Origin: Patescibacteria group bacterium | GTDB lineage: Bacteria; Patescibacteriota; JABMPQ01; JAQVVF01 | Assembly (NCBI GenBank): GCA_041662665.1 | Contig: JBAZSC010000003.1 | Location: 76,333-140,332, forward strand | DNA length: 64,000 nt | Direction: 5' to 3' | Shown here: one piece after another, positions 12,712 to 42,721 of the stretch | Layout: every line of letters starts with the position of its first letter | Position numbering within the stretch: position 1 is the first letter of the stretch | Translations under genes and position numbers: made by a program | Notes under the pieces: model-generated | What the model saw: only the letters and a program-made list of their open reading frames with translations | The model's database searches: none | Told to the model about the DNA's origin: nothing

Positions 12712-13093
12712 AACTTAAAACTTTAAAAATCGTTGACCTGGAAAAAGTAAGTTAGTTATTTTTAAAAGTCTGCTTTCGCTAAAGCTACAGCAGACGAAGC
12801 GAATAAGGGATAGTGAGAGCCTTATAAAAATACTAGCTGAAAATGGATCCAGCGAGATGATAAGTTAAATACTTATCCGGTTGCCTCCGTAACCATAGGC
12901 TAACTGATATCTTGAATCCACCTTTGCTAAAGCTTCGGTGGACAAAGGAGTCAGTAAGTGATCAGTGTTTTTGCACTGATAAACAAGGTGGTAACACGGG
13001 AAGACTTCTCGTCCTTGAATACTTTTTAGAAGTATTTTAGGATGAGAAGTTTTTTGTTATGATCGATCTTTCACAACGCAAGGAGGAGAGAAG
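12712..13093 (+). promoter_or_regulatory. About 380-nt structured 5' leader of the RPH-like gene, containing two copies of the CCGCC-hairpin element and several other stem-loops
   Basis: Promoter TTGACT-N17/18-TATAAT at 12677-12708. Hairpins at 12769-12801, 12858-12882 and 12916-12950; a weak terminator-like hairpin at 13018-13040; SD AAGGAGGAG at 13080. Confidence 0.45.
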
Positions 13094-15619
13094 ATGAAAG
13101 TTCTATACCTGAGAAATCTGATGGGTTTGGAAGTGTCGCAGATTGGTGGCAAAGCATTTAATTTGGGCAAGTTAATTATGGCTGGATTTAATGTACCAAG
13201 TAGAGGTTTTGTGTTAGATGTGGATGTTTTGGACAGTTGGCCAAGTGGACGTGAAGAAGTAGCAGATTTTTTTGTAGATTATTTTGGTGGACAAGTCGTA
13301 GCTGTGAGAAGTTCAGCAGTAGCAGAAGATTCTGGATCAGCTTCTTTTGCTGGTCAGTACAAAACTACCTTGCATGTTAGGACTAGGGAAGAATTTTTGC
13401 GAGCAGTTGATGATTTCGTTGCTGGTTTGCTTGATGATGGCATTCAAGCATATCAGACAGTAGTTAAGCAGAAAGATTCAGGTCGACGGCAGGCAGCTTT
13501 GATTGTTCAGGAAATGGTTGAAGCAGAAATTGCTGGTGTGCTTTTTACGGTTAACCCACTCGATGGTTTGGACGAGATGATGATTACAGCAGCTTCTGGT
13601 ATTGGTGAGGCATTGGTATCTGGTCAGGTGACTGGAGATACATATGTTGTTGATAGAGATGGGATGCTCAAAAAGATGGTTATCGGCGGTGTAAAAAAAG
13701 ATTTGCGAGATGGTGTTGGCTTGATGACAAATAGAGATGTTGCTGAGAGAATTTTGGATGATAGTTTGCTGATGTATTTAGTAAAAATTGGCAAGCGGGT
13801 TGAAGAACTATTCCAATGTCCGCAAGATATCGAATGGGCAATTGTTGGTTCGCAGATTTTTTTGCTGCAAGCTCGACCAATTACGGCAATGTCTACTTTG
13901 GGTTTGCAGCGTCAAAAAGTTATTGATGATCTTGGAAATTCTTTTGAAAAAGAGAGAGCGAGATTGGAAGAGTTAGGTGTTGTATTGGCAACTGATTGTT
14001 TTTCTGATCAAAATATTGCTGAGCTTTTGACTCGTCATCCTACGCCAATGGCTTTTGGAGCATTCTGTTATATTTTTGCTGATGGCGAAGCTGGAATCCG
14101 GCTTGGTCGCAATCAAATGGGTTATGAGATTGGGTCAGAACTTGATCATGGTTTTTTCAGATTAGTTGGTGGTCAACCTCGTTGTAGTATTGTTCATGAT
14201 GCTTTTACTTATCGGATTGCTGGAATTCCGTTGTCGGATTATGCGATTTTGGTGAGATATTATTTGGAGAAAATTGCTGAAGATTCTAAAATGGCAAATT
14301 ATCCAGAAGTAGTGCTCTATAAGCAAGATCCGAGTTTGGAATTTCTGACAGAATTGTTTGGAGCAGAAAAAGCACAGTTCTATCGAGTGGCTTTTGATCG
14401 ATTTTTTACTGGATTAGCAGTGTTGATTGAGCAAACGGTGTTGGAGATGAAGACATTCGAAGATGATTTTAGGGCTTATATTGCAAGAGAGAAAGTCAAG
14501 ATGGAAAGTTTGGACATGAATCTTCAAGCTAATATTGCTCTATGCATGGAAATGTTTGATCATCTGCGAACTGTTGCTTGTGTGATGTTTGTTAAAGTTG
14601 CACGTTTGGGATTTTTTGCTTATGCACGACTTCGAGAAAAAATGGCATTGCATTATGGTAAAGAAAAGGGCGAGCAGTTGTTAGCAACATTAACTAGTGG
14701 ATTGGATAATGATCCGTCTTTGCATTTCAATGTTTGTTTGGCACAGTATCGTGATGGTCAAATCACTTTTTCTGAACTTTTGGAAAGATATGGTCATTTG
14801 GGTGCGAATGAACTAGAGGTTTCAGGATTGCGTTATCATGAAGATTCAAGTTTGTTGGAGCGTTACGCAGAACAGATTGCTGGAGATCCTCGTGTTGAAT
14901 TGGCACGCAGAAAGGCAGAATGTGATAAGGTTCGTGCAACTGTGGCAACGGAATTGGGAGAAGAAGTGGCTAGCTGGGTTGAGGTAGCGCGACAGTATTT
15001 GGCTGGTAGAGAATTAATCAAATATCTTTATTTGATGGAATATGATTTAGTTCGGCAAATGTTACTTAGAATCGAAAAGATTTTACATTGGGAAGATGAT
15101 TTGGTCTTCTGTCTTTATCCAGGAGAGATTCCAATGTTGCAATATGATAGCGAACGTATCCATAGAAAAGCAGTTGCGCGTTTGCAGCGTAGGCGTGAGC
15201 AAATGAATATCTATGTTCCGCCAGTAATTTTCTCTGATGATTTGGAGAGGATCGGTCAATCTCCATATCAAGCATCTGATAAGATTTTGACTGGCTTTGG
15301 AGTGACAGATCAGGTGGTGACTGGAGAGGTAGTTAAAGTGGCTGATCCAAGGGATAGAAAACAAATTGCCAAGCTTTTTGCAGGTTGTGTTCTAGTGACA
15401 ATGACAACTGATCCTTCTTGGGCCCCATTGATTGCAGCGATTGGTAGTAACGGTGGTTTGGTGACTGAGATTGGAGGTCCTTTGGCGCATGGGGCAATTG
15501 TAGCTAGAGAATTGGGAATTGGCGCTGTCTTGGATGTTACTGGAGCAATGCAGATTTTGCAGGATGGAATGAGAGTAGAGGTTAATGGTCCTTTGGGAGT
15601 TGTGAAGATTTTGGATTGA
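13094..15619 (+). CDS. PEP-utilising-enzyme family protein with PPDK-N ATP-grasp domain and C-terminal swivelling His domain (rifampin-phosphotransferase / PEP-synthase-like)
   Basis: N-terminus 'QIGGKAFNLGKL…GFNVPSRGFVL'; C-terminus 'LVTEIGGPLAHGAIVARELGIGAVL' (PEP-utilisers mobile-domain His); no PEP-binding TIM barrel; about 840 aa like the Rph family. Confidence 0.7.
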   Translation: MKVLYLRNLMGLEVSQIGGKAFNLGKLIMAGFNVPSRGFVLDVDVLDSWPSGREEVADFFVDYFGGQVVAVRSSAVAEDSGSASFAGQYKTTLHVRTREEFLRAVDDFVAGLLDDGIQAYQTVVKQKDSGRRQAALIVQEMVEAEIAGVLFTVNPLDGLDEMMITAASGIGEALVSGQVTGDTYVVDRDGMLKKMVIGGVKKDLRDGVGLMTNRDVAERILDDSLLMYLVKIGKRVEELFQCPQDIEWAIVGSQIFLLQARPITAMSTLGLQRQKVIDDLGNSFEKERARLEELGVVLATDCFSDQNIAELLTRHPTPMAFGAFCYIFADGEAGIRLGRNQMGYEIGSELDHGFFRLVGGQPRCSIVHDAFTYRIAGIPLSDYAILVRYYLEKIAEDSKMANYPEVVLYKQDPSLEFLTELFGAEKAQFYRVAFDRFFTGLAVLIEQTVLEMKTFEDDFRAYIAREKVKMESLDMNLQANIALCMEMFDHLRTVACVMFVKVARLGFFAYARLREKMALHYGKEKGEQLLATLTSGLDNDPSLHFNVCLAQYRDGQITFSELLERYGHLGANELEVSGLRYHEDSSLLERYAEQIAGDPRVELARRKAECDKVRATVATELGEEVASWVEVARQYLAGRELIKYLYLMEYDLVRQMLLRIEKILHWEDDLVFCLYPGEIPMLQYDSERIHRKAVARLQRRREQMNIYVPPVIFSDDLERIGQSPYQASDKILTGFGVTDQVVTGEVVKVADPRDRKQIAKLFAGCVLVTMTTDPSWAPLIAAIGSNGGLVTEIGGPLAHGAIVARELGIGAVLDVTGAMQILQDGMRVEVNGPLGVVKILD

Positions 15620-15703
15620 TCTTTTTTGCGAGCAAGCAGATTTATCTGCTTTCTTTTTCTGTTTTGTTTTATTAAGATAATACAAAAGAGAAGAGGAAAT
15701 ATT

Positions 15704-16243
15704 ATGAAGAAAAAAATAATTTTATTTGTTTGTTCTGGAAACATGTTTCGGTCACCAATTGCTGAGGCATATTTTGATATGCTTTTAAAAAAGAATAACG
15801 ATCATAAATTTTTTGTTGCAAAATCAGCAGGAATTCAAGGTACTGGTGGAAAGATAAAATTAAAAGGACAAAATCCTCCAAAATTTAAAAATTTAAGAAA
15901 TTATGAATTAGAATGGAAGCATTCTGAGCCATTGTTAAAGTCGGCAAATATTGATATTTCTAAACATAATTTTGTTGCTATTAATAAGAAAATTATTTTA
16001 GAATCAAGTTTGATTATTGCAATGAGTAAAGATATATATCAAACAAGAACTAACTCTTTATTAAATCAATTTTTAGAAAACAAAGACAAGATTTTTTTAT
16101 TAAGCAATATAATAAACAAAAAAAGAGGAATACCTGATGTTTTTGGAAAAAGAAAAAGGAGAATGTATAAAGTTGCAATTGGACAAATACAAAATTATTT
16201 GGATTCTGGTTATAAGAAAATTATTAAATTAGCTAAAAACTAA
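15704..16243 (+). CDS. Low-molecular-weight protein-tyrosine-phosphatase / ArsC-like (LMWPc) protein
   Basis: P-loop CSGNMFRS (C-X5-R) at the N-terminus after ATG 15704. Confidence 0.65.
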   Translation: MKKKIILFVCSGNMFRSPIAEAYFDMLLKKNNDHKFFVAKSAGIQGTGGKIKLKGQNPPKFKNLRNYELEWKHSEPLLKSANIDISKHNFVAINKKIILESSLIIAMSKDIYQTRTNSLLNQFLENKDKIFLLSNIINKKRGIPDVFGKRKRRMYKVAIGQIQNYLDSGYKKIIKLAKN

Positions 16244-16295
16244 TAATATTTTGTTAAAAAACTGAACTTATTAGTTCGGTTTTTTTGTACAAAAA

Positions 16296-16320
16296 AAGAC
16301 CTCTCAGAGAGAAGGTCTAA
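16296..16320 (-). terminator. Terminator of tRNA-Trp (gaccttctctctgagaggtc + T7 on the minus strand)
   Basis: Hairpin plus T-run immediately 3' of the tRNA on the minus strand; convergent with the plus-strand terminator at 16244-16280. Confidence 0.5.
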
Positions 16321-16325
16321 AGGGG

Positions 16326-16398
16326 CGGGCCAGGAGGGATTCGAACCCACAGCATTCGGTTTTGGAGACCGACGCTCTACCATTAGAGCTACTGGCCC
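16326..16398 (-). tRNA. tRNA-Trp (anticodon CCA)
   Basis: Reverse-complement cloverleaf: acceptor GGGCCAG/CTGGCCC, D-arm GCTC-TAATGGTA-GAGC, anticodon stem TCGGT/ACCGA with loop CTCCAAA, T-loop TTCGAAT. Confidence 0.8.
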
Positions 16399-16482
16399 GC
16401 AAGGTGCAAGAAAAGTAAAGAACGTGTATTTATGATGTCATCATATATCTTTGATTTTGCTTTGTCAAATTTGACTTGTGGA

Positions 16483-17907
16483 TTACTGGTGAGCTTTTTT
16501 CCATTCTTGGTCAGCTAGGTCAAGATCAGAAACAAAACGTTTGATGAAAGGAATAGTGTGGGGCATAATACAAATCTTGTAGACAATCAATGGACAACTG
16601 AGTGGATCTAACGTATTTTTTGGAAAATAATCAGAACGAAGATGATAAGGCTGAAGAATTCCATGTTCTAGGATTTGTTTGGGGATTTCTCCACCTTCAA
16701 TGTCAATGACCATTGGAGCAAAGTTGACATGAGGTGAATACGGCATAATTTTGATCCAATTTAGATTAGCATTTTCCTTAATCAATCTAACTAGCTCATT
16801 TCTTGTTTCAAGACATTGTTGGACATATTTTCGTTGTCCATTCTGTCCTTCTGCCTGAAAGAGATATCGAGCTAAAACAGGAGAGAGGCAAGATCGTGAT
16901 CCAGAAACAGTGTCATGATCATGACCTCGGACGTATTGAACACGTCGAGCAACAAGTCTCATCAAATCTTTGCGACAGAGAAAAACTCCAGCAGGATAAG
17001 GTAGTCTTCCCATTTTGTCGCCGTCAATGGTTACTGACATGACATTAGGAACATTGAATCCAATTTTAGGTGCATTAATGTTGCAAAAAGGAATTGTAAA
17101 ACCGCCAAAGCTAGCATCAACATGCAAATAAAATCGGACATCTTGAGTAGTGTTGCGATCAATGAAATTACTGATCGCTTCGATTGGATCAATTGAGCCA
17201 AGTACAGTTGTTCCAGCTGTTGCAATAATCAGAAATCTTCTGAAGCCTTCATGGATTTTTTGGTTAACAATTTCTTGTAATGATCCAATATCCATTTCGC
17301 CTCGTTCGTTCATGCCAACAAGATTGAGTCCGCAACCGCGATGATCTGGTGTAAACAGATGATCTTTGCTACAGTGAACGCAATGTAACCATTGCGGTTC
17401 GCCAAAATCGAGCATTTCTAAAGCTTGAGAAATAGAGAAGTGCTGCAAAGGAGTTGCTAATGCGACAATTCCGCGATTATTAGGATCTGGACATTGGCGC
17501 AAATATTGTCTGCCGATCCAGAGTCCTTCAATATTGGCTTCAGTACCACCTCCGCAAAAATATCCTTCGGTTGTTGCTGGTGTGCCACCGATAACTGATG
17601 CAAGCATCCAGATTGCTTCAGCTTCCATTCTTTGAACAACTTCAAAACCGCCTTCACCATCTTGGAATTTCAAATTTCCATTATCGTCAATTTCAATGTG
17701 GGTATGACTGCCAATAGCATTGATTTGTTTAGCGAGCAGACTTTTTGCACGACCAAGTACGCCTTTTGGCAGAGTTGTACCAGGATAACAAAATGGCGGA
17801 ATCTCTTGTTCATATGGTGAAGAAATGCTGGCTACGATTTTGGCAATACCTTGTTGATCATGTCCATTTTCTGGCCATTCCCAATCTTGTCTTTTGTTGA
17901 CGTTCAT
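16483..17907 (-). CDS. PLP-dependent group II amino-acid decarboxylase (glutamate/tyrosine decarboxylase-like)
   Basis: 'LHVDASFGGF' (compare GAD 'HVDAASGGF'), 'GTTVLGSIDPI', and Lys in 'IDGDKMG'; SD AAGGGAGGGAAAA upstream of ATG at 17907. Confidence 0.65.
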   Translation of the reverse strand: MNVNKRQDWEWPENGHDQQGIAKIVASISSPYEQEIPPFCYPGTTLPKGVLGRAKSLLAKQINAIGSHTHIEIDDNGNLKFQDGEGGFEVVQRMEAEAIWMLASVIGGTPATTEGYFCGGGTEANIEGLWIGRQYLRQCPDPNNRGIVALATPLQHFSISQALEMLDFGEPQWLHCVHCSKDHLFTPDHRGCGLNLVGMNERGEMDIGSLQEIVNQKIHEGFRRFLIIATAGTTVLGSIDPIEAISNFIDRNTTQDVRFYLHVDASFGGFTIPFCNINAPKIGFNVPNVMSVTIDGDKMGRLPYPAGVFLCRKDLMRLVARRVQYVRGHDHDTVSGSRSCLSPVLARYLFQAEGQNGQRKYVQQCLETRNELVRLIKENANLNWIKIMPYSPHVNFAPMVIDIEGGEIPKQILEHGILQPYHLRSDYFPKNTLDPLSCPLIVYKICIMPHTIPFIKRFVSDLDLADQEWKKAHQ

Positions 17908-18078
17908 TTTCTTTTTTCCCTCCCTTGTTGTGAAGGTGCTTCTGCGAAGTTTATAACAATAATTTGATTTTGGCAAGGGCAGGATTTATTTAAATGATAA
18001 TTTTGTTTTTGTCAAGATGTTCATAACTGCATTGACAAATATATTTAAGACGCTATTATTAGATAAACACTTAAATTT

Positions 18079-19014
18079 ATGATTAAGGTAGAAAATCTTA
18101 CAAAGTCATACGCAAATTTTAAAGCACTAGATGGTGTTTCTTTCGAGGTGCAAAAGGGCGAAATTATCGGTTTTCTAGGTCCTAATGGCGCTGGAAAGAC
18201 GACAACAATGAGGATTTTGACAGGTTTTTTTCCTCCAACATCAGGAAAAGTCGAAATCGATGGTTTTGATATTTTTAATGATTCGATTGAAGTTCGAAAG
18301 AGAATCGGCTATTTGCCAGAAAATACTCCATTATATCAAGACATGGAAGTTTATGCATTTTTACGATATATGGCAGAATTGAAGGATGTTGAGCCAGAAA
18401 AGAAAAATCAGCATATCAAGAATATTATGAAGCGTTGCGGAATTGAGCACATGAAAAATGAGATTATTTCTCGTCTTTCAAAAGGCTATAAACAAAGAGT
18501 TGGATTAGCCCAAGCTTTAATTGGTGATCCAAAAGTATTAATTTTGGATGAGCCAACTATTGGTTTGGATCCAAAACAGATTATTGAAATTAGGAATTTG
18601 ATTAAAGAATTAGGCAAAGAAAAAACAATTATTTTATCAACTCATATTTTACCAGAAGTAGCTGTGACTTGTACTAGAGTTATAATTATTAATGAAGGAA
18701 AGATTGTTGCTGAAGATACACCAGATAATTTGGAGAATAAAGTTTCAGGTGTTGCAAAAGTAATTGTAACTGTTCGAGGCGGATCTCCTGATTTGATAAA
18801 ATCAAGATTGGAAGGCGTACAGGGTGTCAGCAATGTAACTGTTTTGAAAAATCATGCTGGATTTACTGATTTAAGTATTCAATCTGAAAAAGATGTTGAT
18901 GTCAGAGATAAAGTTTCTTCAATTATAGTTCAAAATAATTGGGGATTGATTGAAATGCATCGCGAAACTTTAGGATTAGAGGAAATTTTCTTAAAACTTA
19001 CTAAAAAGGGTTAA
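18079..19014 (+). CDS. ABC transporter ATP-binding protein (GldA-like, ABC-2 subfamily)
   Basis: Walker A GPNGAGKTT, signature LSKGYKQRV, Walker B LILDEPT. Confidence 0.85.
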   Translation: MIKVENLTKSYANFKALDGVSFEVQKGEIIGFLGPNGAGKTTTMRILTGFFPPTSGKVEIDGFDIFNDSIEVRKRIGYLPENTPLYQDMEVYAFLRYMAELKDVEPEKKNQHIKNIMKRCGIEHMKNEIISRLSKGYKQRVGLAQALIGDPKVLILDEPTIGLDPKQIIEIRNLIKELGKEKTIILSTHILPEVAVTCTRVIIINEGKIVAEDTPDNLENKVSGVAKVIVTVRGGSPDLIKSRLEGVQGVSNVTVLKNHAGFTDLSIQSEKDVDVRDKVSSIIVQNNWGLIEMHRETLGLEEIFLKLTKKG

Positions 19015-19110
19015 TTTTCTCGAATAAAATCTCTAATAAAACTAATGTAACTCGAATTTGGGATTTATTAGAGAAAGAGTATTAGAAATAGTATTAGAGA
19101 AATCAATGTT

Positions 19111-19821: not shown

Positions 19822-19868
19822 ATAAGTTCTAAAGTTTATAAAGTTATAAAGTTCATAAAGTAAATATA

Positions 19869-21323
19869 ATGAAATTTGATAAGAAAAAAATTAGTGAAAA
19901 GATCAAAGGTGCAAGCAAAAAAGCTAGCAATGTTTTAGGTGCAAGACAAACAAAATTTGGCAGCAATACTTTAGTATTGATTTTGGCTTTGCTTGGTATT
20001 TTAATTCTTGTTAATTATATTGTTAGAAAAGAATCTGGAACTTTGCGATATGATATGACAAAGAACAAACAGTTTACTTTGTCTGATCAAACAAAAAAAG
20101 TTTTGCAGAATGTTAATGATGATGTAAATATTACAATTTTTTATCAGACTGATAATCCATCTCGTGCTCAATTGCAAAATTTATTATCTGAATATCAAGC
20201 GAAAAATTCTCGTATTAAATTTGAATTTGTTGATCCAGATAAAAATCCAACAAAGGCCAGAGAATTTGGAATTACAAGATATGGAACAATTATATTCAAA
20301 AAAGGAGATAAAACAGAACAAACGACTGGTTTTTCAGAAAGTGATATAACTTCAAGTATTTTAAAATTAAGCAAAGATGGCAAAAAAGTTGTTTACTTTA
20401 TGATTGGTCATAAAGAAAAAGATTTAAGCTTGACCTCAGAAAAAGGTTATAGCAGTATTAAAAATACTTTGGAAAAAGAAAATTTTGAAATAAAAAATTT
20501 AAATTTAACGACAGTTAGTAAAGTTCCTGATGATGCATCTGTTGTAATTTTGGCTGGACCGCAGAAAGCGCTTTTAGATAAAGAAAAAGAATCTTTAAAG
20601 AAATATTTGGATGAAAAAGATGGAAAACTATTTGCGTTGATTGATCCAAGAAAAGAAATAAAAGAAGACGTAAAAGTAAATGATCTTTTGAATAATTATG
20701 GAATTAATTTAACAGATGGCTTAGTAATTGATCCGACAAAAGCTTTTTTTGGCGATGTTGCTGCACCAGTTGTTGAAAAATGGGAAAGCCATCAAATTAC
20801 TGAAGGCTTGTCTGCTGCATTTTTTCCTGGTGTGCAGATGGTTTCTAAAGGAGACAAAACACCAGAAAATATTTTGGTCAATGATTTAGGAAAAAGCAGC
20901 AATGATTCTTGGTTAGAAAATAATTTAGATACTGAAAAAGTAAAATATGATGCAGGATCTGATAAAAAAGGACCAATTTCAATTGGTACTGCTGCTCATC
21001 AAACTAAAAAAGTAAAAGAAGGCGATCAGGAAGTTGCAAAAGAAGGATTGAGAATTGTTGTTATTGGAGATTCAGATTTTGCAGTAAATGGATATGAAAC
21101 TTTCTTAGGCAATCAAGATCTATTTGTTAATTCATTGCATTGGTTAGCTTCTGAAGAAGAATTAATTTCTATTCGTCCAAAAGAAGAAGAACAAAGAACT
21201 GTTGCTTTGACAGGTTCACAAGGCAGAATTATATTTTATTTGACTGTTGTTATTATGCCATTAACTGCAATTGGTGTTGGCATATATGTTTGGTCACGAA
21301 GAAGAAAAACAAGACGACAATAA
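19869..21323 (+). CDS. GldG-like ABC-transport auxiliary component
   Basis: N-terminal TM, large periplasmic domain, C-terminal TM plus basic tail; gene order follows the ATPase and permease. Confidence 0.55.
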   Translation: MKFDKKKISEKIKGASKKASNVLGARQTKFGSNTLVLILALLGILILVNYIVRKESGTLRYDMTKNKQFTLSDQTKKVLQNVNDDVNITIFYQTDNPSRAQLQNLLSEYQAKNSRIKFEFVDPDKNPTKAREFGITRYGTIIFKKGDKTEQTTGFSESDITSSILKLSKDGKKVVYFMIGHKEKDLSLTSEKGYSSIKNTLEKENFEIKNLNLTTVSKVPDDASVVILAGPQKALLDKEKESLKKYLDEKDGKLFALIDPRKEIKEDVKVNDLLNNYGINLTDGLVIDPTKAFFGDVAAPVVEKWESHQITEGLSAAFFPGVQMVSKGDKTPENILVNDLGKSSNDSWLENNLDTEKVKYDAGSDKKGPISIGTAAHQTKKVKEGDQEVAKEGLRIVVIGDSDFAVNGYETFLGNQDLFVNSLHWLASEEELISIRPKEEEQRTVALTGSQGRIIFYLTVVIMPLTAIGVGIYVWSRRRKTRRQ

Positions 21324-21405
21324 TTTGTATTAACGCAGAATCGAACGCAGAAAATGCAGAATTATACGAGAAAATTGTTTCAGAAATTATATTAAAAATA
21401 GTGAT

Positions 21406-25294: not shown

Positions 25295-26647
25295 ATGAAT
25301 AAGATTATTCTGCATATTGATATGAATTCATATTTTGCGACTTGTGAACAACAAGCAAATCCTTTTTTACGTGGAAAACCAATTGCAGTCGGCGGCCCGC
25401 CTTCGTCTAGCACTTTTGCGAAAAGTTGCTGGACTTCGGCGGGTAAATCTGGTGGAGAATTTTCACGTAGGAATTTGCTTATTGTAGCTGCATCTAAAGA
25501 GGCGAAGCTAAGAGGTGTTAAATCAGTAATGCCATCTTGGGAGGCGGTAAAGATTTGTCCAGAATTAATTTTTGTACCAGGAGATCATATAAAATACAAA
25601 TGGATTACGGATAAATTTTTAGAAATATTTAAATCATATTCGCCAATTTTAGAAATTTTTAGTATTGATGAAGTCTTTTTAGAGCTCACGAATTTGCACG
25701 AATGCCTTACGGACACGAATTGCACGAATGAAGATAATGTTGATTGTGCGGTTAAAATTGCTAAAGAAATTAAATTAAGATTAAAAAAAGAGATTGGTGA
25801 ATGGATGACTTGTTCAATTGGAATTGCAAAAAATAAATTACTGGCAAAGTTGGCTTCGGATTTAAAAAAGCCAGATGGATTAATTATTATTAATGATGAA
25901 AATAAAGAGAAAATTTTAAATTCGATAGAGCTAACTGATTTTTGCGGAATTGGCAAGAGGATTGAAGCAAGATTAAATGGAATGGGAATTTTTACAGTAA
26001 AGCAACTTAAAAGTTGTTCATATATTAATTTAACTAAACAATTCAAATCTTATGGTCATAAATTATATTTGATGGCCCGAGGAGAAGATAATTCAGAAGT
26101 TTTACCTTATTATTTATTGCCAGACGAAAAATCAATGGGTCATAATTTTACTTTGCCAAAAGATGTTTGGGATTTGAAAGAAATAAAAAATGTGATTTTG
26201 CAGTTATCGGAAAAATTAGGTAGACGTTTAAGGCGAAAAAATTTTGTTGCGAAATGTGTAACGTTATTGTTGAGATACTCTTTTTATGAAAAAAATTCTG
26301 GATATGCTAGTTTTCATCATTTTCATAAGCAAAAAAAAGTCAGCTATTGGATTAATGATGGTTATGAAATTTATAAAGTTGCGGAAAAAATTTTAGAAAG
26401 TTGGAAAGATAATCAATCAGTTAGAATGATTGGCGTTTCAGTTTCTTGCCTTTCAAAAATGGATCAGATTTCATGTTTAGAAAAAGATAATAAATTAAAA
26501 AATGTTTTAAAAGCTTCGGATAAAATAAATAATAAATTTGGAGAAAATACAATTTTTCGTGGCGGTTATTTGCAAGCTGAAAAATCAAGAATTTTAATGC
26601 CAAAAGCTTTAAAATCTCCAGTAAGCTTTATGCGACGAAATGATTAA
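25295..26647 (+). CDS. dinB: Y-family translesion DNA polymerase IV (DinB-like) with internal insertions
   Basis: 'ILHIDMNSYFATCEQQANPFLRGKPIAVGG' motif I; 'SIDEVFLE' motif; about 450 aa with low-complexity inserts. Confidence 0.8.
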   Translation: MNKIILHIDMNSYFATCEQQANPFLRGKPIAVGGPPSSSTFAKSCWTSAGKSGGEFSRRNLLIVAASKEAKLRGVKSVMPSWEAVKICPELIFVPGDHIKYKWITDKFLEIFKSYSPILEIFSIDEVFLELTNLHECLTDTNCTNEDNVDCAVKIAKEIKLRLKKEIGEWMTCSIGIAKNKLLAKLASDLKKPDGLIIINDENKEKILNSIELTDFCGIGKRIEARLNGMGIFTVKQLKSCSYINLTKQFKSYGHKLYLMARGEDNSEVLPYYLLPDEKSMGHNFTLPKDVWDLKEIKNVILQLSEKLGRRLRRKNFVAKCVTLLLRYSFYEKNSGYASFHHFHKQKKVSYWINDGYEIYKVAEKILESWKDNQSVRMIGVSVSCLSKMDQISCLEKDNKLKNVLKASDKINNKFGENTIFRGGYLQAEKSRILMPKALKSPVSFMRRND

Positions 26648-34634: not shown

Positions 34635-34635
34635 G

Positions 34636-34688: not shown

Positions 34689-34714
34689 TTTGTGATAAAA
34701 TAAAAAATAAATAA

Positions 34715-35401: not shown

Positions 35402-35486
35402 AAAATAAGTAGAAAAACAGTTGCTCAGCGCATCAGCGTAAGATCTGCGTTGGCATCAGTGTTTAATCTGCTTCTAAGAAATAAAA

Positions 35487-36362
35487 ATGCCGAATTTGGG
35501 AGGATATTATTATTCAAAAAAACGTGATAAAGGACTTTCGTCTTACGCAAAAAAAATGCGCAAGTCGAAAAAAAAGTCTGTACAAAGTTTAGGTAAAACT
35601 AAAACTAATTTTGGCGTTTCTTTGAGAGGTAAATCAACTTTGATCGTCTTGTTGATTGCAGCGATTATTTGCGCAGGAATATTATTTTTCAGCAATTTTT
35701 TTTCAGTAAAGAAAGCGGTATTAGTTGGAAATAATAATATTAAAAGCGAGGAAATAGAAAATATTTTAAAAGATGCAATTTCTGGAAAAAGATTTTTTAT
35801 TTTTCAAGCAAGCAATATTATATTGATTAATGATGGCATGATTAAAAATAAAATTATGGAGGAGATGCCATTGATTGATAAAATTGAGATAAAAAGAATG
35901 TTGCCAAATACTTTAAAATTAAATATTTCAGAAAGAGATCCATTTGCTGTTTGGGAGACAGGAGGAAAAAGATATCTTGTTGATTCAAGAGGAAAGGTTT
36001 GTTATGAAATTAAAGATGATGCTAAAATGGACTTGCCAACAATTTATGATAAACAAAATAAATCAGTAGAAGTGAAGGGCGAGGCAACTTTTCCTCAACA
36101 GATAAATATAATTAGAAACATTTTAAATTCGTTGAGAGATAAAACAAAATTAGAAGTTGAATCTGTTTCTTTGCCGAATTCATTAGGTTTTGAAGTTGAT
36201 GTAAAAACAAAAGATGGATTTATGATATACTTTAATACAGAGAGAAGTGTTGATTCGCAAATCAGAGATTTGAAAAGTGTTTTAGATAAACAAGTTGCTG
36301 ACCAAAAAGGATCTTTGCAGTATATTGATTTGCGAGTTGAGAATTGGGTTTACTACAAGTAG
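35487..36362 (+). CDS. ftsQ: Cell-division protein FtsQ/DivIB-like (POTRA)
   Basis: Basic N-terminus, single TM, POTRA-like domain; synteny after ddl. Confidence 0.65.
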   Translation: MPNLGGYYYSKKRDKGLSSYAKKMRKSKKKSVQSLGKTKTNFGVSLRGKSTLIVLLIAAIICAGILFFSNFFSVKKAVLVGNNNIKSEEIENILKDAISGKRFFIFQASNIILINDGMIKNKIMEEMPLIDKIEIKRMLPNTLKLNISERDPFAVWETGGKRYLVDSRGKVCYEIKDDAKMDLPTIYDKQNKSVEVKGEATFPQQINIIRNILNSLRDKTKLEVESVSLPNSLGFEVDVKTKDGFMIYFNTERSVDSQIRDLKSVLDKQVADQKGSLQYIDLRVENWVYYK

Positions 36363-36381
36363 TTATAAAGTTTTTAAAGTT

Positions 36382-36423
36382 ATCCGCCTTCGCTTCTGCT
36401 GAAGCTACGGCGGACAAGTAAAG
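36382..36423 (+). repeat. CCGCC-hairpin element (ATCCGCCTTCGC-ttctgctgaagctac-GGCGGACAAGTAAAG) inserted in a TAAAGTTNN 9-bp array
   Basis: Stem CCGCC/GGCGG; paralogs at 12769, 12916 and 41447 with covarying stems. Confidence 0.6.
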
Positions 36424-36434
36424 TTCATAAAGTT

Positions 36435-36809
36435 GTGAAAATTAAAGAAAAAATTAGAATATTCAAACAACATCCATACTTCAGATCTAAATTTAGTATT
36501 ATTATGCTTTTTAATAGTTTGCTCTTGAATTTTGCTCTGTGGATGTTATTATATTTTAGAATAAAGCCTTCTAATTTTCCCATACCTTTGCATTATTCAG
36601 TTTATTTTGGAATTGATAATATAGATTATTGGTACAAAGTATTTTTTGTACCTGGAATTGGAATAGCTTTTTTGCTATTGAATTTGTTCTTATGTATTTG
36701 GTTTTATAATAAAGAAAGATTTATTACTCATTTTTTGACAATTAATAATTTTGTCATTCAGCTGATTTTATTTGGGTTTGTTGTGCCATTGGTATTTATG
36801 CAGACATAA
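36435..36809 (+). CDS. Small membrane protein (hypothetical)
   Basis: 3-4 TM helices; the start is uncertain (alternative ATG at about 36504). Confidence 0.3.
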   Translation: MKIKEKIRIFKQHPYFRSKFSIIMLFNSLLLNFALWMLLYFRIKPSNFPIPLHYSVYFGIDNIDYWYKVFFVPGIGIAFLLLNLFLCIWFYNKERFITHFLTINNFVIQLILFGFVVPLVFMQT

Positions 36810-36938
36810 TACAAATATACGAATTTATACAAATCTACGAATATGCGAATTAGCGAATTCGTACATTAGTATATTTGTAAAGTGGCATTAATTTGTTTCT
36901 AAGGTCACAAATTAATTTTGTAGATTGGTATCATATTT

Positions 36939-38516
36939 ATGCGGGCAGATCAAATTAAGAATAGAAAAGATAGAACTATTTATAGATTACTGGAAATATT
37001 GCCGGGCTTTTTGTCTTGGGGAGTTTTATTAGGAAGTACTATCTTGTCTTTTGTTGAGCCTGTTTGGGTAGCAATTTTTATTATTTGTTTTGATGTCTAT
37101 TGGTTAATAAAAGTACTTTATTTAGCAGTATATTTATTGGTTTCTTATCGCAGATTAAAAAAGAATGAAAAAGAGCCATGGCTTAAAAATTGTAATAAAA
37201 TTAAAGTTACAGATCTACCTTCGTCTTCTGACTCCGGTAGACAAAGCAGGCCGAAATTTGAAGAGATTCATCATTTGGTAATTATACCGATGGTTTTTGA
37301 AGATGTTGATATTGTAAGACAGACTTTTCAAGCATTAATTAATTCTAATTATCCGAAAGATAAAATGATTGTTGTTTTAGCAACTGAAGAAAGAGCTGGA
37401 GTTTGGGCAGAAAAAGTTGCTGATCAAATTCGTGGTGAGTTTGGTGATAAATTTTTTCATTTTGCAGTGACTAAGCATCCTGATAATATTGTTGGCGAAT
37501 TAAAGGGTAAGGGCTCTAATGAAACTTGGGCAGCAAAAGAAATTAGGAAATTTATTGATGAAAAAGGATTTACATACGAAAGCGTTATTACTTCAGTTTT
37601 TGATGTTGATACTTGTGTTCATCCTGAATATTTTGGTATATTAACTTATAAATTTTTGACTGTCGAAGATCATTTGCATGCTTCTTTTCAGCCTGTGCCG
37701 ATGTTTTTTAATAATCTTTGGGATTCTCCAGCTTTAATGAGAATTGTGGCAATGAGCACGACTTTTTGGATGTTAATGGAACAAGGTAGGCCAGAGAAAT
37801 TATATACGTTTTCTAGCCATAGCATGAATTTTAAAACTCTTGTTGAAGTTGGTTATTGGGAGACTGATGTTGTTTCTGAAGATTCAAGAATTTTTTGGCA
37901 ATGCTTTAATTTTTATAATGGCAATTATCGTTGTGAGCCTTTGTTGATTCCTGTTTATATGGATACTGTTTTGGCTGGAACTTTTTGGCAAAGTGTAGTT
38001 AATCAATACAAGCAACAGCGAAGATGGGCTTATGGAGCAGAAAATATTCCTTATGTATTAACGAGATTCGCAAAGAATAAAAAGATGTCTTTTTTTAAAA
38101 AGATTGATCATGGTTTTTGGGTAGTTGAAGGCATGCTTTCTTGGGCAACAAATTCAATAATAATTTTCTTGGCTGGCTGGTTGCCTTTGTTTGTTGGCGG
38201 AGAAGCTTTTTCAAAATCTTTATTAGCACAAAATTTGCCATATGTAACGCAGATATTAATGACATTAGCAATGTTGGGAATGATTGTTTCAGCAACTTTA
38301 AGTATGTTCATGTTGCCACCAAGACCAAAAAGACATGGTCAGCACAAAATATTGTTTATGCTTTTGCAATGGATCTTATTGCCTATTTCAACAATTTGCT
38401 TAGGTTCTTTTCCGGCATTAGATGCGCAAACAAGATTAATGTTTGGAAAATATATGGGATTTTGGGTGACTGAGAAGGCGAGGAAGCGCGACGATGATGT
38501 TAAAAAACAAAATTAA
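36939..38516 (+). CDS. Membrane-embedded processive family-2 glycosyltransferase (cellulose/chitin-synthase-like)
   Basis: N- and C-terminal TM bundles; D, DxD and 'QQRRW' (QxxRW) motifs. Confidence 0.6.
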   Translation: MRADQIKNRKDRTIYRLLEILPGFLSWGVLLGSTILSFVEPVWVAIFIICFDVYWLIKVLYLAVYLLVSYRRLKKNEKEPWLKNCNKIKVTDLPSSSDSGRQSRPKFEEIHHLVIIPMVFEDVDIVRQTFQALINSNYPKDKMIVVLATEERAGVWAEKVADQIRGEFGDKFFHFAVTKHPDNIVGELKGKGSNETWAAKEIRKFIDEKGFTYESVITSVFDVDTCVHPEYFGILTYKFLTVEDHLHASFQPVPMFFNNLWDSPALMRIVAMSTTFWMLMEQGRPEKLYTFSSHSMNFKTLVEVGYWETDVVSEDSRIFWQCFNFYNGNYRCEPLLIPVYMDTVLAGTFWQSVVNQYKQQRRWAYGAENIPYVLTRFAKNKKMSFFKKIDHGFWVVEGMLSWATNSIIIFLAGWLPLFVGGEAFSKSLLAQNLPYVTQILMTLAMLGMIVSATLSMFMLPPRPKRHGQHKILFMLLQWILLPISTICLGSFPALDAQTRLMFGKYMGFWVTEKARKRDDDVKKQN

Positions 38517-38545
38517 AAATTGTGGTTTTGAAGGTGAGTTAAATA

Positions 38546-38605
38546 GGTTAGATAAGTTAGACTGGTTAGATTTGTTAACGCTAACTAGTTTAACTTATCT
38601 AACTA
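38546..38605 (+). repeat. GTTAGAYNN 9-bp array forming an inverted repeat (ggttagataagttagactgg … ctagtttaacttatctaac)
   Basis: Tandem heptamer cores plus a 19-nt palindromic arm. Confidence 0.6.
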
Positions 38606-38620
38606 ATTTAATTAATTTCT

Positions 38621-40264
38621 ATGTTTGATATTATTATTAAAAATGGCACAATTGTCGATGGTACTGGCAAAGAAAAATATCAGGCTGATATTGGAATTAA
38701 TCGAGATACAATTTCAGAAATTGGAAATTTAGAAAATGCCAAAGCTTTAAAACAAATTGATGCTAAAGGTTTTTTTGTTTGTCCTGGATTTGTTGATGTC
38801 TTAAATCATTCTGACAGCTATTTTAAAATTTTTTCAAATCCGACTTTAGATAGTTTGGCTTTGCAAGGAATTACAACTATAATTGGAGGAAATTGTGGAG
38901 CATCTTTGGCACCTTTGGCTTCTAGTTTTACAATGTCTGATTTAAATAAGAGAATGGGTTTTAAAGCAAATGTAATCACAAATCCATCAAAAAGTGAGAC
39001 ATTATTAAAGTCAATGAGAAAATGGATTGATGTTTCAGGTATTAATATTAATTGGTCTACTTTGGATGAGTTTCTAGATGTTTTAGGCACTCAAGGAATT
39101 TCTTTAAATTTTGGGACTTTGATTGGTCATAGTTCAATGAGGCGAAATTTAGTTGGTGAGAGAATTTCTGATTTAACTTCTGACGAGATGACTTTTTTTA
39201 AAGAAATGATTGCTGATTCAATGCAACAAGGCGCTTTGGGAATGTCTTGCGGACTTTCTTTTAGCCATGAAAATTTTGTTGAAACAAGCGAGCTTTTAGA
39301 TTTAGCTTCTGTTTTGCATGATAGTGATTCGATAATGGCTTTTCATCTGAGAAATGAATCAGGAAAAATTATTGAATCAGTGGCTGAAGTGATTGAAATT
39401 GCAAAAAGAAGCGGAGTGCGAATTGAAATTTCTCATTTCAAAATTAATGGCAAGGAAAACTGGAATAAAATTAATGAAGCCTTTTCTTTAATTGAAAAAG
39501 CTAATGAAAAAGGATTGGAAATTAATTTTGATTTTTATCCTTATGATTTTGGATGGACAGTTTTTTATCAATTTTTGCCAAGCTCATTATATATCGGTGG
39601 CAGAGAAAAAATGTTAAAAAGATTAATGGATGAAAAAGAAAAGCCAGAAATTTTGAAATCTCTCCAAAAAATTTCAGCAAGAGTTTCAGAAATGATAATT
39701 GCTTATAGCCCATTTAATAAATCTTTTGTTGGCAGGAGTTTTACTGATATTGCCCAATCTCAAGGTATTAGTTTGGAAGAAGCAATTATGATGGCGCTGA
39801 TTGGCTCTCGCGGACATTTGATTTGTTTTGATAAAAATTTAGATGAAAAGAATATTGTAAGACAAATTAAACATCCATTAGGAATTTTATCATCTGATGG
39901 AAGCGGTTTTTATGAAGAAGAAAGTAGAAATGGACAATTAGTTCACCCTAGATGTTTCGGTGCTTTTACGCGTTTTCTAGGAAAATATATTAGAGAAGGA
40001 AAATTCTTGGAATGGGAAAAAGCAATTCAAAAAATTACTTCAATGCCAGCTTTAAAATATGGAATCAATAATCGTGGTTTTTTGCAAGCTGGATTAAAAG
40101 CTGATATTACAATTTTTGATCCAAATAAAATTGCTGGTTTAGCAACAATTGATAATCCATTTCAATATTCTCGTGGTGTAAAATATGTTTTGGTAAACGG
40201 AAAGTTTGTTGTTAATGATTCTAAGCATACAAAAGAACTTGCTGGAGAAATAATTAGAAAATAA
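38621..40264 (+). CDS. Amidohydrolase-3 family, N-acyl-D-amino-acid deacylase (D-aminoacylase)-like
   Basis: 'MFDIIIKNGTIVDGTGKEKYQADIGI…IDAKGFFVCPGFVDVLNHSD' N-terminal signature. Confidence 0.7.
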   Translation: MFDIIIKNGTIVDGTGKEKYQADIGINRDTISEIGNLENAKALKQIDAKGFFVCPGFVDVLNHSDSYFKIFSNPTLDSLALQGITTIIGGNCGASLAPLASSFTMSDLNKRMGFKANVITNPSKSETLLKSMRKWIDVSGININWSTLDEFLDVLGTQGISLNFGTLIGHSSMRRNLVGERISDLTSDEMTFFKEMIADSMQQGALGMSCGLSFSHENFVETSELLDLASVLHDSDSIMAFHLRNESGKIIESVAEVIEIAKRSGVRIEISHFKINGKENWNKINEAFSLIEKANEKGLEINFDFYPYDFGWTVFYQFLPSSLYIGGREKMLKRLMDEKEKPEILKSLQKISARVSEMIIAYSPFNKSFVGRSFTDIAQSQGISLEEAIMMALIGSRGHLICFDKNLDEKNIVRQIKHPLGILSSDGSGFYEEESRNGQLVHPRCFGAFTRFLGKYIREGKFLEWEKAIQKITSMPALKYGINNRGFLQAGLKADITIFDPNKIAGLATIDNPFQYSRGVKYVLVNGKFVVNDSKHTKELAGEIIRK

Positions 40265-40267
40265 ATT

Positions 40268-40345
40268 AGTTAGATTTGTTAGACTGGTTAGATAAGTTAG
40301 GCTAGTTAAACGATTGTAAAATTGATAAAATTGATAAAATTCTTA
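40268..40345 (+). repeat. GTTAGAYNN (five copies) then AATTGATAA arrays
   Basis: gttagattt gttagactg gttagataa gttaggcta gttaaac … attgtaaa attgataa aattgataa. Confidence 0.65.
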
Positions 40346-40376
40346 CCCTGCACTTAGCAGGGATTTTGGCAAAAAT

Positions 40377-41150
40377 ATGCAGAAAGTTGTATCTCAAAAA
40401 TTAAGTAAACATAATAATTTGATTCAAGGCTTGGCTATTGGTGATTTTGGGCATTTAAAATTTGGAGATGATGGGAGTGAAAATAATATTGAAAAAGTTG
40501 TTGAAAATAGAAAAAAATATTTTGATATTTTTGGGATTGATTTGAAAAAAGTTGTAATGCAAAATCAAGTTCATGGAACACATATTTCTTTAGTTTCAAA
40601 AAAAGATTGTGGGAAAGGAGTTTTTAGTCCGGATTCTTATATTGATAATAGCGATGGCTTAGTTACAAAAGATAAAAATGTATTTTTAGTTTGCTATACT
40701 GCTGATTGTTTGCCAGTAACTTTTTTTGATCCAAAATTAAAAATTTGTGGAATTGCTCATTCTGGCTGGAAAGGAACTTTGGGAAATATTTCTGGTAAAA
40801 TGATTGGTGAATTTAAGAAAATGGGTAGTAATGTTTTAGACATTATTGTTTATATCGGTCCAGCAATTGGTAAATGCTGTTACGAAGTAAGTGAAGCAAA
40901 AGATGACAGGATTAAACTTTTTGAAAATTTGGCGAAAGAATTTAAAGCTGATAATTTTGTCGTAAAAGAAAATGATAAAATTTATTTGGATTTAAAAAGG
41001 ATAGTAAAAACGGAATTGTTGGATTCTGGTGTTAAAAATGAAAACATTGAGATTTCAAAAATTTGTACAAGTTGTGATGATAAATTTCCGTCATATCATA
41101 GAGATAAAGATTTTAAGTCTGATTTGTTAAGCGTAATAGGTATGAAATAG
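40377..41150 (+). CDS. pgeF: Peptidoglycan editing factor PgeF (YfiH/DUF152 purine-nucleoside-phosphorylase-like)
   Basis: 'HSGWKGT', 'CYTADC', 'CTSC' conserved Cys/His pattern. Confidence 0.75.
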   Translation: MQKVVSQKLSKHNNLIQGLAIGDFGHLKFGDDGSENNIEKVVENRKKYFDIFGIDLKKVVMQNQVHGTHISLVSKKDCGKGVFSPDSYIDNSDGLVTKDKNVFLVCYTADCLPVTFFDPKLKICGIAHSGWKGTLGNISGKMIGEFKKMGSNVLDIIVYIGPAIGKCCYEVSEAKDDRIKLFENLAKEFKADNFVVKENDKIYLDLKRIVKTELLDSGVKNENIEISKICTSCDDKFPSYHRDKDFKSDLLSVIGMK

Positions 41151-41221
41151 CTTGCGAAAAGCTTGATATTCGGATATTATGATATTAAGCGGAAAGTTGT
41201 TTTTGTGTTTTTAGTGTTTAA

Positions 41222-42721
41222 GTGTTCGAGTGTTTTATGACAATAGAAGATCTAAAAAAGAAAAATATTCATGTCTTAGGCGTTTCTGGAGCTGAAGGAA
41301 GCGCGGTTTTGGAATTTTTGGCTGATAATGGAGTTAAAAATATTACTGCTCATGATTTTTGCGATCAAGATAAATTTAAAGAAAGTTTTTTTTCTTTTCA
41401 TGACAAAATGACAAAAAAAGAAAAAGAAGAAACATATAATGAGATTATCCGCCTTCGCCAAGGCTCCGGCGGACAAGGAAAGGTTAAGTTTAATTATAAA
41501 GATACTTATCTTGACCAAATTGAAAAGGCAGATTTGATTTTTGTGCCTCAATCTTGGTTTAGATATGCGCAAAATGATTTATTGAACCAGCATAAAGGAA
41601 AAATCGAATTTTCTAATATTACAAAATTATATTTTCAATTTTGCAAAGGCAAAATAATTGCAATAACTGGAACATCTGGAAAATCAACGACTTCAGCATT
41701 AGTAAATGATATAATGAAGCGAGGATATAAATTAGGCAAGGTCTATTTTACTGGCAATGATCGTGAGAATGTACAGATTCTAAAAAATATTTTTGAAATT
41801 AAAGAAAATGATATTTTAGTTGTTGAAGTAAGCAACAGGCAATTAATGATTGATTTGAAAAAAAGTCCGTATATTGGCATTATTACGAATATCTCGCCGA
41901 ATCACATGGATGATCATAAGACTTTTACTGATTATATTACAACAAAGAGAAGTTTGATCAGATATCAAAAAAAAGGTGATTTTGCAATTTTGAATTTTGA
42001 TAATGATATTACAAAGGATATTGGCTTAGATATTGATTCAACAGTTTATTATTTTTCTAGAAAAGGCAGAGTTGATCGAGGCGCTTATGTAAAATTCAAT
42101 GAAATAATAATTCAAGATTTTGAAAGAGAAAGAAAAATTTGTTCAGTTTTGGATTTAAAAATTCCTGGACCACATAACATTGAAAATGCTTTGGCAGCAA
42201 GTTTGGCTGGATATTTGATGAAAATTAATACGAAAGATATCAGAGAAGCATTGTTAAATTTTAAGGGTATAAAATCGAGATTAGAATTAGTAAGAGAAGT
42301 TGATGGCGTTTCATATATTGAAGATTCTTCAGCTTGCAATCCTGATGGGACTGCTGTTGCTGTTTCATCATTTAAAAAACCAATGATTTTAATTGCTGGA
42401 GGATCAAGGAAAAAACCATATCCAGGAGAATTCGATAGAATGGCTGATTCAATAATAAATTCAAAAGTAAAAATTGTTTTTTTGATTGGAGAGAGAGCAG
42501 AAACAATTAAATTAGCTTTAAAAAATTCGAGTATAAGATTTCAAAAAACTAGTCCAATAATTAAAATATCTGAAAATTTGGAGGATGCAGTTATTTCTGC
42601 CAATAAATCAGCAAAAAGAGGTGATATCGTAATTTTATCGCCTGGTTGTGAAAGCTTTGGTCTCTTTATTGATTATCGCGATCGAGCGAGACAGTTTAAA
42701 AAATTAGTGAAAAGTTTATAA
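41222..42721 (+). CDS. murD: UDP-N-acetylmuramoylalanine--D-glutamate ligase carrying an in-frame CCGCC-hairpin element insertion
   Basis: 'HVLGVSGAEGSA', 'GTSGKSTT' Mur-ligase motifs; element at 41447-41482 encodes 'RLRQGSGGQGKV'. Confidence 0.75.
   Translation: MFECFMTIEDLKKKNIHVLGVSGAEGSAVLEFLADNGVKNITAHDFCDQDKFKESFFSFHDKMTKKEKEETYNEIIRLRQGSGGQGKVKFNYKDTYLDQIEKADLIFVPQSWFRYAQNDLLNQHKGKIEFSNITKLYFQFCKGKIIAITGTSGKSTTSALVNDIMKRGYKLGKVYFTGNDRENVQILKNIFEIKENDILVVEVSNRQLMIDLKKSPYIGIITNISPNHMDDHKTFTDYITTKRSLIRYQKKGDFAILNFDNDITKDIGLDIDSTVYYFSRKGRVDRGAYVKFNEIIIQDFERERKICSVLDLKIPGPHNIENALAASLAGYLMKINTKDIREALLNFKGIKSRLELVREVDGVSYIEDSSACNPDGTAVAVSSFKKPMILIAGGSRKKPYPGEFDRMADSIINSKVKIVFLIGERAETIKLALKNSSIRFQKTSPIIKISENLEDAVISANKSAKRGDIVILSPGCESFGLFIDYRDRARQFKKLVKSL

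Follow-up and report, generated by a model that had tools for sequence, protein, structure and literature searches.

A CAAG-tagged hairpin within protein genes and a T-box leader of a Patescibacteria genome: a probable REP-like mobile element

What kind of sequence can lie in frame inside murD, within a riboswitch, and between genes of one stretch of DNA while keeping the same fold? The question was raised by a 64-kb stretch of a Patescibacteria group bacterium (contig JBAZSC010000003.1 of assembly GCA_041662665.1, positions 76,333 to 140,332; hereafter the window), for which a first-pass annotation had described four copies of a covarying hairpin. The window has 31 to 36% GC and a GC skew that stays between +0.17 and +0.32, almost all of its genes are on the + strand, and it holds a cell-division and cell-wall cluster (ddl, ftsQ, murD, ftsW, murG, murC, and murB). 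Our analysis supports the earlier observation and its central interpretation, the insertion of a palindromic repeat into an essential gene. The copies can probably be assigned to a family of non-autonomous mobile DNA elements, very small and of the repetitive extragenic palindrome (REP) kind, and alignments of orthologues show, at the level of sequence, that repeated and recent insertions of the element have taken place in this Patescibacteria lineage. What was not expected is that one conserved 30-nt hairpin spans at least 12 phyla, lying in frame within housekeeping proteins as well as inside catalytic and regulatory RNAs.

The hairpin and its six copies

Six copies of 30 to 48 nt were found in the window, three of the six in coding sequence, two within a T-box leader, and one intergenic:

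Copy 1, 12769..12799, + strand: T-CTGCT-TTC-GC-TAAA-GC-TAC-AGCAG-A-CGAAG, an additional hairpin immediately ahead of the AG bulge, on the 5′ side of T-box Stem I
Copy 2, 12917..12947, + strand: T-CCACC-TTT-GC-TAAA-GC-TTC-GGTGG-A-CAAAG, in the linker that joins Stem IIA/B to Stem III of the T-box
Copy 3, 25396..25443, + strand: C-CCGCC-TTC-(30-nt AT-rich self-paired tip)-TTC-GGCGG-G, in frame in dinB
Copy 4, 36383..36418, + strand: T-CCGCC-TTC-GCTTC-TGCT-GAAGC-TAC-GGCGG-A-CAAG, intergenic, 21 nt past the ftsQ stop codon
Copy 5, 37214..37246, + strand: T-CTACC-TTC-GTC-TTCT-GAC-TCC-GGTAG-A-CAAAG, in frame in a glycosyltransferase-like open reading frame (ORF) at 36939-38516
Copy 6, 41448..41477, + strand: T-CCGCC-TTC-GC-CAAG-GC-TCC-GGCGG-A-CAAG, in frame in the murD ORF at 41237-42721
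T-box leader, 12724..13019, + strand: Rfam RF00230, 99.8 bits compared to a gathering score of 93

Copies 1, 2, 4, and 6 are the four of the first-pass annotation, and all were confirmed where it had placed them, with the limits given above; the copies in dinB and in the glycosyltransferase-like ORF had been missed. A covariance model of the hairpin, trained on 60 copies and run unfiltered over the window, matched copy 4 (E = 5e-9) and copy 5 (37211-37248, E = 8e-5), the stem of the latter (TCTACC/GGTAGA) representing a fourth compensatory variant. The match to copy 3 was weaker (25397-25442, E = 0.076) and is backed by an orthologue alignment; this copy lacks the CAAG tail, but it possesses the outer stem (CCCGCC/GGCGGG) and both TTC strands of the internal loop, and it folds with −30.2 kcal/mol. 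The model scores of copies 1 and 2 are circular because both belong to the training set. A loose structural pattern (a 5-nt stem, TTYGC, 2 to 24 nt, GCNNN, and the complementary stem) recovered the four copies described first, compared to a mean of 0.81 matches in dinucleotide shuffles, and a strict pattern gave two matches in the window where 0.00 were expected from shuffles. These controls rule out a chance origin of the hairpin copies. One further weak model match (20804-20841, − strand, E = 0.064) is probably due to chance, and partial matches at 48436, 20807, 23963, and 17505 were dismissed as such after reading.

The copies conform to the consensus Y-CCGCC-TTC-GC-(tip)-GC-TWC-GGCGG-R-CAAG. 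A GC-rich outer stem of 6 bp (YCCGCC/GGCGGR) and an inner stem (GC/GC) are separated by a conserved 3 × 3 mismatched internal loop, TTC opposite TWC, which we take to be real because its middle position is unpaired in 35 of 58 copies. On the 3′ side follows an unpaired tag, CAAG or CAAAG (CTTG on the other strand). The base preceding CCGCC is always a pyrimidine and forms a pair with the purine that follows GGCGG; 86 copies have T-A, 28 have C-G, and 9 are exceptions. Selection acts on the pairing of the hairpin: over 125 copies, 99.1% of the cells are paired and double-sided changes affect five of the six outer pairs, whereas none of 500 shuffles reached the observed values and slid controls gave 31 to 47%. 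The compensatory changes noted earlier (CCGCC/GGCGG, CCACC/GGTGG, and CTGCT/AGCAG) are real.

The tip is free in both sequence and length, with 57 distinct forms whose ends are complementary in 48 cases, compared to a mean of 16.7 after shuffling; the shortest form is a 2-nt loop closed by a covarying pair (CG in 31 copies, UA in 20). The center varies from 4 to about 30 nt and the element as a whole from 30 to 54 nt. The length is divisible by three (30, 33, or 36 nt) in 128 of 161 exact-pattern copies (80%), which may represent an adaptation to life inside genes or may reflect dominant subfamilies only. The element encodes nothing, and direct reading revealed no stop codon in any of the six frames. 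It is preceded by T or A in 93 of 121 cases, with no longer motif fixed. An intrinsic terminator was ruled out: the hairpin is not followed by a T-run (its tails are ACAAGTAAAG, ACAAGGAAAG, and the like), and no terminator-like site is present in 36200-37000. A search of Rfam 15 gave no match to the hairpin at gathering score and only noise at E ≤ 10 on two copies.

Lineage-specific insertions in protein genes

Palindrome insertions that are predicted from sequence to be read through in frame occur in murD, dinB, and the glycosyltransferase-like gene of the window and in murC of a relative (locus L001). In MurD, 11 residues (I71-G81) stand in place of 3, so that the net gain is 8 amino acids rather than the 12-residue insertion that had been proposed; in the DNA, 33 nt are found where loci L002 and L003 have 9 nt. 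The insert peptide is IIRLRQGSGGQGKV in the window and VFRLRQGFGGQGKI in the closest relative (P0001 from GCA_964574655.1, 87% identical), and it is present only in these two. The 20 other orthologues in the alignment (20 of the 21 aligned to the window sequence) lack it and have a three-residue turn at this place; they comprise P0002 to P0005, which are 80 to 90% identical, and 16 more distant proteins. The peptide, as the first-pass annotation had anticipated, is not ancestral. In an AlphaFold2 model with a mean predicted local distance difference test (pLDDT) score of 88.7, the insert forms the end of helix 60-75 and the coil 76-83 ahead of strand 84-86, with a local pLDDT minimum of 74; in this model, its position would fit a tolerated surface connection. 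Mapping the insert onto solved structures by sequence yielded no alignment, the N-terminal domain being too divergent.

The two coding sites that could be read cleanly were a glycosyltransferase-like gene and murC. Copy 5 is an exact 33-nt (11-residue) insertion compared to the L001 orthologue, extending from the closing T through the CAAAG tag and read as LPSSSDSGRQS; it is found in the window only, and the empty site in L001 reads ACTGA/CAGGCC (break at the slash). Conversely, murC of L001 carries an insert (TRLRQGSGGQG, +30 nt) that is absent from the window and from L002. No target-site duplication was present at either junction. On the DNA alignments, what these two junctions show is the gain of a precise unit, from the closing pyrimidine to the CAAG tag, without duplication of the target, and in this the element differs from the MITEs (miniature inverted-repeat transposable elements).

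In dinB (ORF 25295-26647), copy 3 is read as PPSSSTFAKSCWTSAG. Compared to its five closest relatives, the window DinB has 12 additional alignment columns (about 11 residues when counted directly), placed immediately behind the conserved VGG, and its Pfam IMS domain covers 182 residues for 148 profile positions. This copy occurs in the window only (DNA compared with locus L126). The dinB gene of L126 (P0122) carries a different copy at a second site, with the stem CCTGCC/GGCAGG. Around window residues 345-352, a second variable site has 9 to 18 extra residues in relatives, with element-like peptides PAFANASAGRSESRLRYG (L126:1380-1480 for P0122; also P0124 and P0125), and dinB therefore appears to be a repeated target. 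In GCA_964574655.1, a TAA stands in frame upstream of the dinB start as called (L124:9850-10001; ..YFATCE*QANPF..), and the gene is either a pseudogene or truncated at its N terminus.

The alignments of MurD, MurC, the glycosyltransferase-like protein, and DinB together rule out an ancestral origin of the peptides; the coding copies are, as far as these comparisons of sequence reach, lineage-specific insertions.

The intergenic copy 4 follows a gene assigned to ftsQ by Pfam (POTRA_1/FtsQ_DivIB_C) and precedes an ORF of 124 residues (36435-36809) that has no Pfam match. Four TAAAGTT units with a 9-nt spacing (36366-36436) lie upstream of this ORF, two on either side of the hairpin, confirming that the copy splits an array as had been noted. 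The units are not supported as a target-site duplication of copy 4 because the two cleanly resolved insertion sites show none; the corresponding spacer in L001 could not be aligned with the window.

Copies in structured RNAs and in other bacteria

The two remaining copies in the window lie in what had been termed an RPH-like leader. Both hairpins are indeed located there, upstream of an ORF with PPDK_N and PEP-utilizers domains (Rph-like, 13094-15619, Pfam), but the leader itself is a T-box riboswitch. Compared to the RF00230 consensus, copy 1 is a 31-nt insertion and copy 2 is inside a 53-nt insertion. An orthologous leader (L127), whose downstream protein is 61% identical to that of the window, has hairpins at the same two places with the stems TCCACC/GGCGGA and TTCGCT/AGCGGA and with one tip that differs. 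These hairpins are outside the training set and are the only significant model matches in that locus (E = 0.0026 at the copy-1 site and E = 4e-4 at the copy-2 site, where the stem is TTCGCT/AGCGGA). Because copies with different stems occupy the same places in L127, the T-box insertions are old and have been kept paired by compensatory change.

The age of these two copies bears on another explanation, that the similarity among copies is due to chance or ancestry, with the peptides being old variable loops and the T-box hairpins native parts of the riboswitch. The T-box copies are common to two lineages and hence old, and at the second site of a distant T-box (L128) there is a plain GC hairpin, TCCCGCC-AAG-GCGGGA. 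Such an explanation is nevertheless highly improbable given the shuffle controls, the close orthologues that lack the inserts and so contradict it, and the recurrence of a 23-base core in unrelated genes and phyla.

The genes led by the T-box (12724-16243) encode the Rph-like protein and then a low-molecular-weight phosphatase, not an aminoacyl-tRNA synthetase. Genes for tryptophanyl-tRNA synthetase (9799-10845) and tRNA-Trp (16323-16399) neighbor them, the same arrangement is found in L127, and L129 has a Trp_repressor gene upstream instead. In the putative specifier region, AAU directly follows GAA, and UGG begins two bases further on. Elsewhere in the window, at 3812-4894, a gene adjoining tRNA-Thr and tRNA-Gly encodes a member of the bacterial archaeo-eukaryotic release-factor-like families (baeRF family 10/12 and eRF1 domain 3).

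Further copies, expected by the first-pass annotation, exist in the window, in the relative, and in many other genomes. When the 23 specified core bases were scanned against one genome per species (596 Gb), the exact core was found at 120 or more places in at least 12 phyla, compared to at most about 7 expected even if all of the DNA had 70% GC. Among the matches listed, the record titles name Planctomycetota, Verrucomicrobiota, Bacteroidota, Acidobacteriota, Elusimicrobia, Bdellovibrionota, Armatimonadetes, and Nitrospiraceae, along with Alpha-, Beta-, and Gammaproteobacteria (many of them Bradyrhizobium), Patescibacteria including Saccharibacteria, and metagenome-assembled genomes (MAGs) of a Bifidobacterium and an Omnitrophota. 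The model identified 25 further copies in the matched loci, with other stems such as CCAGCC/GGCTGG, CCAACC/GGTTGG, and CCCTGC/GCAGGG. The exact core also occurs on 37 IMG/VR viral contigs, some with three copies; a blastn search of plasmid and phage record collections with a 37-mer gave no match, which a filter or the short query may explain.

Ten checked matches are within genes with Pfam domains, encoding an ABC ATPase, a pyridine-nucleotide disulphide oxidoreductase (Pyr_redox), RadA, arginyl-tRNA synthetase (ArgRS), a P-type ATPase, an RlmN-like radical-SAM enzyme, a serpin, two glycosyltransferases, and a DUF255 protein. In these bona fide genes, copies occur in both orientations and in differing reading frames, which favors an element at the level of DNA.

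Several copies are associated with structured RNAs. At L090:6080-6130, helix P12 of a class A RNase P RNA is formed or capped by an entire element, which amounts to 35 inserted nt compared to Rfam; the native consensus at this spot (ggcggGuAAGGGUGAAA) resembles the 3′ end of the element, GGCGGRCAAG. Copies adjoin or separate tRNA genes at L009:4127-4327, L035:864-977, and L066:4226-4261; in L009, two tRNA genes are flanked by three copies in alternating orientation, and in L035 the CAAG tag runs exactly up to tRNA position +1.

Such locations raise the possibility that the hairpin is a functional RNA module, either a site for a conserved RNA-binding protein or RNase or a stabilizing or processing hairpin, that selection spreads and whose coding copies are tolerated by-products. 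The nine copies of this lineage (six in the window and three in about 38 kb of the relative) are all on the sense, transcribed strand, which is also the G-rich strand. Yet this orientation does not hold more widely, with 8 antisense and 9 sense copies in the genes of other phyla. The copies located in a T-box and an RNase P RNA and next to tRNA genes would suit such a module, as would the compensatory changes that keep the orthologous T-box copies paired, whereas in-frame insertion in murD, murC, dinB, and the ArgRS gene is not expected of it. Some tips are UUCG- or GAAA-type loops, but the tip found most often leaves a loop of 2 nt, unfavorable in RNA, and at the closing pair G-U-type combinations are no commoner than C-A mismatches (3 compared to 5). 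Considering also that no Rfam family matches and no T-run follows the hairpin, we regard an RNA module as unlikely.

Relation to REPs and other known systems

A mobile DNA element remains our preferred reading, and among known systems the hairpin is best filed as a CAAG-tagged variant of the REP-like palindromic mobile elements. REPs in families GTAG-3 and GTAG-14 are composed of a stem, non-complementary di- or trinucleotides, and a GC-flanked loop of 2 to 4 nt or a longer self-paired one (Di Nocera 2013, PMC3733652). More generally, a REP is an imperfect palindrome with mismatches or a bulge that the transposase needs and with a conserved tetranucleotide adjoining the hairpin, for which a role resembling that of the guide sequence at IS200/IS605 ends has been proposed (Corneloup 2021, PMC8266576). 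The hairpin described here has the same layout: a short, GC-rich, imperfect palindrome (20 to 50 nt in REPs) repeated in the genome, conserved mismatches in the stem (the TTC/TWC internal loop), an unpaired conserved tetranucleotide at one end, compensatory stem subfamilies, GC-flanked tips of 2 to 4 nt or longer self-paired tips, no coding capacity, and no target duplication. REPs have also been found in frame within genes of several species, often DNA-repair genes (Di Nocera 2013, PMC3733652), a residence shared by the element in dinB and, in L086, radA.

A further point of comparison is provided by REPs of Bradyrhizobium. There, the matches place the element core at the apex of GTAG REPs (GTGGGCA..CTT-CCGCCTTCGC-tip-GCTACGGCGGACAAG-TCG..TGCCCAC-CCTAC), and this core appears to be the GCGG/CCGC-type loop, a loop variant of GTAG-14 REPs reported only in that genus (Di Nocera 2013, PMC3733652). 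The core is the same and the tip is self-complementary, as described for that variant, but the element is free-standing in many phyla, including the AT-rich Patescibacteria genome, which shows no surrounding GTAG REP. Beyond this loop variant, no description of the hairpin family was found in the open-access literature by sequence string or topic.

We suggest that the element moves as a folded single strand, by cut-and-paste or by copying, through an enzyme that would act in trans, for which an HUH/Y1 transposase of the REP-associated tyrosine transposase (RAYT) or IS200/IS605 type is the best candidate, since such enzymes read a hairpin with required mismatches and an adjacent guide tetranucleotide. 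Copies would survive only where they do little harm, that is, between genes or as self-folding inserts in RNA genes (the T-box and RNase P helix P12). In proteins, an insert that is free of stop codons, has a length of 3n, and lands in a loop might be tolerated. Inside a functional RNA, the hairpin would then be kept paired by compensatory substitutions.

Several observations weigh against this proposal. No transposase or HUH protein, and hence no RAYT, is present among about 50 ORFs of the window, and Pfam showed no transposase family to be enriched among the 121 ORFs scanned around copies in other genomes. The tag is CAAG (CTTG on the other strand) rather than the GTAG or CGTC of REPs. REPs are mostly extragenic and often form inverted dimers, whereas a large share of the element copies is in genes or structured RNAs, those in the window are all singletons on one strand, and inverted dimers (REPINs, or bacterial interspersed mosaic elements [BIMEs]) are absent from it. 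The core is near-identical across phyla, which is unusual because REPs normally diverge together with their own transposase. Orientation did not follow local GC skew significantly over 148 loci (81 compared to 66, p = 0.29). Because all nine copies of the lineage lie on the sense, G-rich strand, an RNA-level role within it is possible, and this bias would fit a single-strand DNA mechanism or an RNA-level constraint alike. Lastly, not all junctions are clean, as 9 and 18 native bases were replaced at murD and dinB, respectively; these replacements may derive from small deletions at insertion, from later trimming, or, at the dinB site, from an older, decayed copy.

Comparison with other single-strand systems leads to a related alternative. 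Like the subterminal hairpins of IS200/IS605 elements, the element combines an imperfect hairpin with an adjacent tetranucleotide and, like these single-stranded DNA elements, gives no duplication on insertion; unlike them, it has no insertion sequence body, tnpA, or tnpB nearby and no fixed target tetranucleotide. It also resembles the attC site of integrons, where, on a folded single strand, an unpaired spacer separates a conserved outer box from an inner box and the terminal structure is variable. The hairpin could accordingly be the recombination or binding site of a ubiquitous host DNA enzyme, such as an attC-like tyrosine recombinase acting on a folded strand, with its spread being a side effect. 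The layout would match an R box, unpaired central spacer, L box, and variable terminal structure, with 11-nt arms around a short center, a core near-identical in 12 or more phyla fits a universally conserved partner, and no element-linked gene was found among the 121 flanking ORFs. However, the consensus lacks R″/R′ boxes (RYYYAAC/GTTRRRY), no cassettes or cassette-like DNA lie between copies, the element is much shorter than attC, a center that varies from 4 to about 30 nt is not tolerated by double-strand core sites, and the partner is putative; we consider this explanation quite doubtful.

A combination of mobility with a conserved partner is conceivable, although on present evidence rather improbable. 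The constancy of the core from Patescibacteria to Bradyrhizobium would then mark a pan-bacterial minimal mobile hairpin that relies not on a transposase of its own but on a host enzyme of DNA replication, repair, or recombination that is conserved universally. If true, the hairpin would represent a new class of selfish DNA, with its freedom from stop codons and its length, mostly divisible by three, as adaptations to residence within genes.

The parallel drawn earlier with Rickettsia palindromic elements (RPEs) is sound insofar as a palindromic repeat lies in frame in housekeeping genes, an essential one among them, and also in RNA genes and intergenic DNA, but the element is not a member of the RPE family. 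Classic RPE-1 elements are 100 to 150 bp long and confined to Rickettsia, whereas the element has 30 to 54 nt and occurs in many phyla rather than one genus; length and range set the two apart. Nor are in-frame palindromic repeats confined to Rickettsia, since REPs are read through in genes elsewhere (PMC3733652).

The wider meaning of the REP-like reading lies in its setting and its reach. A symbiont-type genome of roughly 0.65 Mb and 32% GC would carry an active palindromic element that remodels MurD, MurC, DinB, and a riboswitch, and the element of this lineage is linked to one sequence-conserved family in at least 12 phyla and on viral contigs. The family offers a natural experiment on where proteins and structured RNAs tolerate insertions of 10 amino acids or 30 nt, and it gives rise to spurious "hypothetical proteins" and to artefacts in annotations and alignments. 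For mobile-DNA biology, it poses the puzzle of which enzyme recognizes one 30-nt hairpin in such different hosts.

Three minor observations concern the arms and arrangement of the element. The 5′ arm CCGCCTTCGCCA is presumably the reverse complement of a conserved 16S rRNA stretch (GGCGAAGGCGG, positions ∼720-731), probably by coincidence; literature matches for GCGAAGGCGG are mostly amplicon or primer sequences. In L087, three whole copies stand in tandem. In an Omnitrophota MAG (L049:1-120), several 3′ half-arms (CGGCGGACAAGT) come after three 5′ half-arms (CCGCCTTYGCCAAGGCTT), forming a nested array of halves.

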